This document shows positions 51,355 through 51,532 of a stretch of DNA of 64,000 bases, piece after piece. Location of the stretch: assembly GCF_056712565.1 (NCBI RefSeq), contig NZ_CM160072.1. One strand, 5' to 3'. A model generated the notes under the pieces. The model was not told the DNA's origin. It was given only the letters and a program-made list of their open reading frames with translations, and searched no databases. Both the position numbers and the translations under genes were made by a program. Positions within the stretch are counted from its first letter, which is position 1. Each line of letters opens with the position of its first letter.

Positions 51355-51532
51355 TTACGCCCCACAGTGCTGATTTTGCAACAACTGGTGCGTCTCCTGG
51401 CGCACCTTTTTTTCTCCTCCTGTACTATTGTTGCGTTTTTGTTGCGCATTAGTTCACTTAATTTGCTTTACATCTCCCGTAAATATTTTTCTGCGATACA
51501 ATGCCTTTACGTTATGTAACGGAGAGTTCGGC

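Follow-up and report, generated by a model that had tools for sequence, protein, structure and literature searches.

The 64,000-nucleotide stretch of DNA analyzed here (contig NZ_CM160072.1; the whole stretch is called the window) belongs to Escherichia coli, and its malM-ubiC junction does not contain the gene that other strains of the species carry at this site, espX4, which is named yjbI in K-12. Positions 51155-51735 match the type strain DSM 30083 (= ATCC 11775) with 100% identity. According to the list of open reading frames (ORFs), malM, the last gene of the malK-lamB-malM operon, occupies positions 50434-51354 on the plus strand, and ubiC, which encodes chorismate lyase and is annotated as such in identical RefSeq genomes, occupies 51533-52030 on the same strand. 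The stop codon of malM ends at 51354 and the ATG of ubiC starts at 51533, leaving an interval (51355-51532) of exactly 178 bp, which the original prediction had estimated at about 180 bp. Both genes are close to their K-12 counterparts: malM shows 97% nucleotide identity with b4037, and UbiC 98% identity according to tblastn.

In E. coli K-12 MG1655, the order is malM (b4037), the annotated pseudogene yjbI (b4038, 1,581 bp) and ubiC (b4039), with a distance of 2,031 bp between malM and ubiC. This agrees with the original prediction, which placed a yjbI pseudogene between these genes in K-12 and none in the window. The 1,866-bp K-12 insert was compared with the whole 64 kb window using blastn (word size 7, E≤10) and tblastx; neither the interval 51355-51532 nor the rest of the window shows yjbI-like sequence, and the only matches were chance matches of 20 nt or less, all of them outside the interval. 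The homology that would have refuted the original prediction is thus absent. Alignment with K-12, suggested together with that prediction as a check, shows that homology resumes on both sides of the insert. Window positions 50215-51413 map to positions 4325-5534 of the K-12 locus (L001), and window positions 51427-53000 map to L001 7401-8976. Homology ends at 51413 (L001 5534) and starts again at 51427 (L001 7401), and 1,866 bp in K-12 replace 13 bp of the window, CTCCTCCTGTACT. The insert has a G+C content of 34% overall and of 29-35% in 400-bp segments, in relation to 50-55% in the malM and ubiCA flanks, a composition that indicates a foreign origin. It contains a single gene, yjbI, and inspection of the sequence shows a terminator-like hairpin downstream of it. 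Translation of the K-12 yjbI in frame 0 shows three in-frame stops, all inside one short out-of-frame stretch, and judging from this reading frame the K-12 copy is a decayed remnant, which had been one of the two origins considered at first for yjbI.

A conservation profile was obtained by aligning the window interval with its counterparts in 78 further Enterobacteriaceae species. At 51387-51413 on the plus strand, a terminator scan, RNA folding and conservation all mark a terminator-like hairpin, GGTGCGTC-TCCT-GGCGCACC followed by T7. Starting 33 nt past the malM stop, the hairpin (51387-51406) pairs 8 bp, six of them G-C, around a 4-nt loop. Its folding energy is -17 kcal/mol (z = -2.98), a value that none of 200 shuffled sequences reached. 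Its stem and T run are kept across the 78 species, which belong to several genera. A G+C-rich stem-loop, with a T run directly after it and located downstream of a stop codon, corresponds to a Rho-independent terminator, and the hairpin is presumed to be the terminator of the malM operon. It is followed by the 13-bp spacer CTCCTCCTGTACT (51414-51426), the unoccupied site, delimited by the blastn matches and by the breakpoints of an anchored comparison. In the intergenic alignment this spacer shows the lowest conservation, with a column agreement of 0.3-0.5, and the least conserved stretch, 51414-51428, lies exactly where other E. coli strains carry the insert. K-12 homology on the right flank starts at 51427, and the region common to both strains that begins there (51427-51459, plus strand) reaches a conservation of 0.9-1.0 across the 78 species. 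Within it, TTGTTGCG occurs twice at a distance of 11 bp (51428-51435 and 51439-51446), both copies being kept across genera, and a GTTCAC block is also present. This direct repeat was also recovered in the K-12 repeat search, as family D13, and the pair, or the region as a whole, may be a transcription-factor or other regulatory site for ubiCA. In Salmonella and Citrobacter, the second TTGTTGCG copy makes a perfect palindrome, TGTTGCGCAACA. The insert of K-12 therefore sits between the malM terminator and the conserved ubiC upstream region, and both are left intact.

Closer to ubiC, the conservation profile and an alignment of Escherichia, Salmonella, Citrobacter and Enterobacter show that a TCTGCGATACAATG block lying 30-45 nt before the ATG (51488-51503, plus strand, TTTCTGCGATACAATG) hardly varies. 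Inside this block, which is conserved in the 78 species, there is an invariant -10-like TACAAT at 51497-51502, with no good -35 element at 17 nt. The original prediction placed the ubiC promoter in the interval. A consensus scan for canonical sigma-70 promoters found no sites in 51300-51600, and a literature search for a mapped ubiC or ubiCA promoter gave nothing relevant; the claim is made plausible by the conserved TACAAT block, and from this conservation we infer 51488-51503 to be the strongest candidate as core ubiC promoter. A Shine-Dalgarno-like GGAGAG (51521-51526, plus strand), located 6 nt upstream of the ubiC ATG, is also kept across species. A scan of 51200-51700 against Rfam (E≤1) gave no credible small RNA or riboswitch, and one long non-coding RNA match inside ubiC was rejected as spurious, with 14.6 bits against a gathering score of 40.

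The gene found at this site in other E. coli strains is espX4, the same gene as K-12 yjbI (b4038). In O157:H7 Sakai, the gene between malM and ubiC is ECs_5021, annotated as espX4, "T3SS effector-like protein EspX" (T3SS, type III secretion system), and a published table equates ECs5021 with EspX4 (PMC5931665). The O157 protein is intact, with 526 amino acid residues, and shows a SopA-like central domain (PF13981, 170.3 bits, cut-off 27) and Pentapeptide_4 repeats (54.4 bits, cut-off 38). On the NCBIfam equivalog NF007264 "SopA family protein" (cut-off 326), its score is 1172 bits. EspX4 has in common with the HECT-like E3 ubiquitin ligases of the type of Salmonella SopA and NleL of enterohemorrhagic E. 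coli the beta-helix (pentapeptide) and central domains; however, on the HECT-type E3 effector model NF011904 it reaches 70.9 bits, below the cut-off of 500, and residues 170-518 align to model positions 56-422 of 606, leaving the C-terminal third of the model unmatched. We take this unmatched part to be the catalytic lobe, and on the basis of these domain matches EspX4 is not regarded as a demonstrated E3 ligase. While Sakai espX4 and K-12 yjbI occupy the exact malM-ubiC site, the window is without any copy of the gene.

The inserted gene is found in different states. It is intact in O157, IAI39 and ST69 (sequence type 69) strains, frameshifted in K-12 and, by annotation, in O104:H4, and interrupted by an IS1 or IS4-family insertion sequence in several genomes. 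In E. coli MSB1_1D (L088 4001-6660), two IS1 copies flanking a 498-bp hypothetical gene replace most of the espX4 insert, and 119 bp of its left edge and the terminator-proximal right edge are kept. MSB1_1D exemplifies a real secondary loss of espX4 and the traces that such a deletion leaves here. Another EspX-family gene, espX5 (ECs_5048), is located between yjcE and actP in Sakai (L083 23253-28178); IAI39 (L085 1-723) does not have it and shows a yjcE-actP distance of 82 bp, so EspX-family genes vary independently in presence or absence at different backbone sites. The window ends before the yjcE-actP locus.

To establish which state of the junction is ancestral, one genome per species was scanned with MalM, which recovered 80 loci, and malM, ubiC, ubiA and any YjbI homologue were located in each by tblastn. 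In one locus (L061) no ubiC was located, and it is uninformative. In the 78 other Enterobacteriaceae species for which both genes were located, the malM-ubiC gap ranges between 176 and 249 bp, with most gaps between 176 and 194 bp in relation to 178 bp in the window, and shows no YjbI-like sequence by tblastn. These species include E. albertii, E. whittamii, Escherichia sp. MOD1-EC7003 and the genomes SCPM-O-B-8794 and E69, deposited as "E. coli", as well as representatives of Salmonella, Citrobacter, Enterobacter, Klebsiella, Kluyvera, Raoultella and Kosakonia; four non-coli Escherichia lineages are among the yjbI-free outgroups. The short, yjbI-free gap across these 78 outgroup species shows that the short junction is the ancestral state. 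The empty-site spacers of other Escherichia (CTCTTCTCATGTG, CTCTTTCCATGTG, CTTCTCCTGTGCC and similar) have the same length as that of the window and a similar CT-rich composition, and those of E. albertii, E. whittamii, MOD1-EC7003, E69, Salmonella and Citrobacter align with it at the same length. The ancestral Enterobacteriaceae region follows the same order as the window: terminator hairpin and T run, variable spacer, TTGTTGCG repeats, CTGCGATACAATG block, GGAGAG and ATG. The window differs from it only in point differences, and the sequence of the 13-bp spacer is lineage-specific.

Two of the outgroup genomes titled E. coli, SCPM-O-B-8794 (L002) and E69 (L004), differ by 5-10% from the window in lamB, malM and ubiCA, and E69 groups with E. 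whittamii, not with E. coli, in the flanking-gene tree described below. Both probably represent other Escherichia species, or cryptic clades, deposited under the name E. coli.

The outgroup state bears directly on the possibility that espX4 goes back to the ancestor of all E. coli and that B2/G lost it, which would make the short interval of the window a derived deletion. In favor of it, the gene can clearly be dispensed with and has decayed more than once. A deletion, however, would have had to restore exactly the ancestral junction, which is very unlikely: the window interval has the length and layout of the outgroups, its spacer is homologous to that of other Escherichia, and no yjbI-like bases are left in the window, while the one real loss examined, that of MSB1_1D, leaves the insert edges and IS1 copies behind. 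We consider the deletion highly improbable, and further evidence on it comes from the distribution and age of the insert.

The pangenome comparison that accompanied the original prediction as a second check was carried out on 5,426 complete E. coli genomes. A contiguous (empty) junction is present in 1,126 of them and the insert in 4,299 (5,425 together). The insert is carried by about 79% of sequenced E. coli, and the window shows the minority but ancestral state. The first reading of this site is thereby refined: the gene is espX4, intact in many strains, and the "lineage" that carries it amounts to most of the sequenced species. Empty-site genomes include the type strain, Nissle 1917, E2348/69 (B2), APEC O2-211 and MDR_56, whereas K-12, O104:H4, ST69, O157 Sakai and IAI39 are occupied. 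We take the phylogroups of the occupied strains to be A (K-12), B1 (O104:H4), D (ST69), E (O157) and F (IAI39). The malM-ubiC interval of MDR_56 is identical to that of the window at 178 of 178 positions. MDR_56 has been used as a reference for ST117, the main sequence type of phylogroup G (PMC6085623, PMC9744880). The espX4 gene has been described as absent from the B2 sequence types ST131, ST12, ST73, ST127 and ST95 (PMC8844930), and the window matches this absent state.

Empty-site genomes less than 99% identical to the window at the junction were considered as possible members of another phylogroup, and this was rejected, as those examined, GPEC606 and four other chicken isolates, are B2-like. 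In GPEC606 (L087 2294-3199), malM is 906 bp long rather than 921 bp, and the same allele is found in GPEC464, GPEC1042, GPEC1165 and GPEC1185. It corresponds to a 15-bp in-frame deletion within B2-like flanks, and this deletion is the reason for their lower junction identity to the window.

A phylogenetic tree was generated by the neighbor-joining method from 3.66 kb of flanking genes (lamB, malM and ubiC-ubiA) of five occupied and three empty strains and was rooted with other Escherichia. The occupied and the empty strains form reciprocal sister clades, each with 200 of 200 bootstraps, and the B2/G strains are thus sister to all occupied strains at this locus, a position that disfavors a deletion in B2/G. 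The synonymous divergence (dS) between Sakai and IAI39 is 0.061 in espX4, 0.059 in malM and 0.063 in lamB; since the dS of espX4 is equal to that of the flanks, the insert has been co-inherited with them since the Sakai and IAI39 lineages split. The ratio of nonsynonymous to synonymous divergence (dN/dS) for the same pair is 0.56 in espX4 versus 0.02-0.15 in malM and lamB, which suggests that espX4 is under weak constraint. A codon-aligned dN/dS for the K-12 copy was discarded, as it is inflated by the out-of-frame segment. The age that follows from the E and F strains, and the presence of the insert in about four of every five genomes, are the features of the data that speak for a deletion from an ancestrally occupied site. 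In addition, some published whole-genome phylogenies group F with B2/G, which would put the insertion before the E. coli root.

The same data bear on a third possibility, in which there was one insertion and afterwards either the insert spread between phylogroups or the empty allele entered B2/G, by homologous recombination through the malM and ubiC flanks; the distribution seen today would then follow gene flow at the locus and not the strain phylogeny. Flank identity across E. coli is 97-99%, ample for homologous recombination, and MDR_56, of phylogroup G, is only 0.4-0.7% from the B2 strains at this locus, a closeness that, like its identical interval, fits shared ancestry or transfer alike. 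Nevertheless, espX4 and its flanks agree in dS between the E and F strains and the flanking-gene tree splits cleanly in two, both as vertical descent predicts, and nothing in the data requires recombination. We regard this history as very unlikely.

Very probably, then, the window comes from a B2/G-type E. coli that keeps the ancestral, never-occupied malM-ubiC region, and espX4 was inserted in the ancestor that phylogroups A, B1, D, E and F share. The distribution is most simply read as a single old insertion in their stem lineage, B2/G having always been empty, and the reciprocal clades of the flanking-gene tree fit this reading. About 1.87 kb of AT-rich foreign DNA would have been inserted into the spacer in their common ancestor, carrying one gene, espX4 (K-12 yjbI), which encodes a SopA-family pentapeptide-repeat effector-like protein, and then the terminator-like hairpin; the malM terminator and the ubiC upstream region would have remained intact. 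The insert would then have been inherited vertically under weak constraint, and a number of lineages would have lost the intact gene: K-12 and O104:H4 through frameshifts, others through IS1 and IS4-family insertions. The suggestion in the original prediction that yjbI is a lineage-specific insertion is borne out by the outgroup polarity, by the G+C content of the insert against that of its flanks and by the separate clades of the flanking-gene tree.

Several points weigh against this account. The edges of the K-12 insert show no target-site duplication, terminal inverted repeats, integrase or recombinase gene or insertion-sequence remnant, and a repeat search over L001 5440-7520 gave only short chance matches at the two edges. 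The right edge in K-12 (...CACTTCATGCG) resembles the Salmonella and Citrobacter spacer (ATTTCATGCG), which leaves an uncertainty of about 10 bp in the position of the breakpoint. The loci recovered included neither E. fergusonii nor Shigella, and only a few named strains out of the 5,425 genomes were assigned to phylogroups. A tree of a single 3.66 kb locus is compatible with a recombination history specific to that locus. Finally, some published whole-genome trees reportedly place F with B2/G, and under that grouping one insertion would not be enough, and a loss or a recombinational replacement of the allele would have to be added.

The presence and absence pattern of espX4, including its absence from B2, was already known, and what is added here is the polarity at the level of the site and the breakpoints. 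The case is an ordinary polymorphism of an accessory gene, with outgroups that reveal its polarity; it matters little and addresses no open question. The empty junction marks the lineage of the strain, and K-12 represents the derived state at the malM-ubiC locus. The espX4 gene is a standard entry in virulence-gene screens, and calls of an "espX4 virulence gene" in the style of VFDB in non-pathogenic E. coli reflect phylogroup ancestry, not pathogenic potential.

Enterobacter cloacae DSM 26481 (NZ_CP056117.1; L043 6940-9907) was the sole other species recovered with a large malM-ubiC gap, of 2,972 bp. Its 2.97 kb insert, unrelated to espX4, entered the same intergenic position independently. 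It encodes, on the minus strand, a 375-residue Tli4-type lipase-immunity protein of the type VI secretion system (Tli4_N 150 bits, Tli4_C 139 bits), and it also contains three consecutive ORFs of 105, 262 and 181 amino acid residues that resemble a fragmented alpha/beta-hydrolase (lipase-type) effector. The espX4 gene in E. coli, the independent Tli4/lipase insert in E. cloacae and the IS1 and IS4-family elements within the E. coli insert together raise the idea that, in Enterobacteriaceae, effector genes acquired by horizontal transfer have repeatedly landed in the spacer after the malM terminator, and that the insert may alter read-through into ubiCA. We hold this to be rather doubtful. If it were true, 1.9 kb of DNA with its own terminator-like hairpin might change the read-through from a maltose-induced operon into ubiquinone biosynthesis genes, and maltose-operon read-through into ubiCA might differ between B2/G and other E. 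coli.

Beyond ubiC, the window contains ubiA (52043-52915, plus strand), which encodes 4-hydroxybenzoate octaprenyltransferase according to the ORF list and the annotation of K-12 and other genomes, and plsB, on the minus strand from position 53068. Upstream of malM, the lamB-malM gap is 322 bp in the window and 242 bp in K-12. This gap contains a tandem array of the repetitive extragenic palindromic (REP) type with a 91-bp unit (50124-50337; 2.4 copies, 96% match, unit of the GCCGGATAAGG...GCATCCGGCA type), and the array of the window is about one unit longer than that of K-12.
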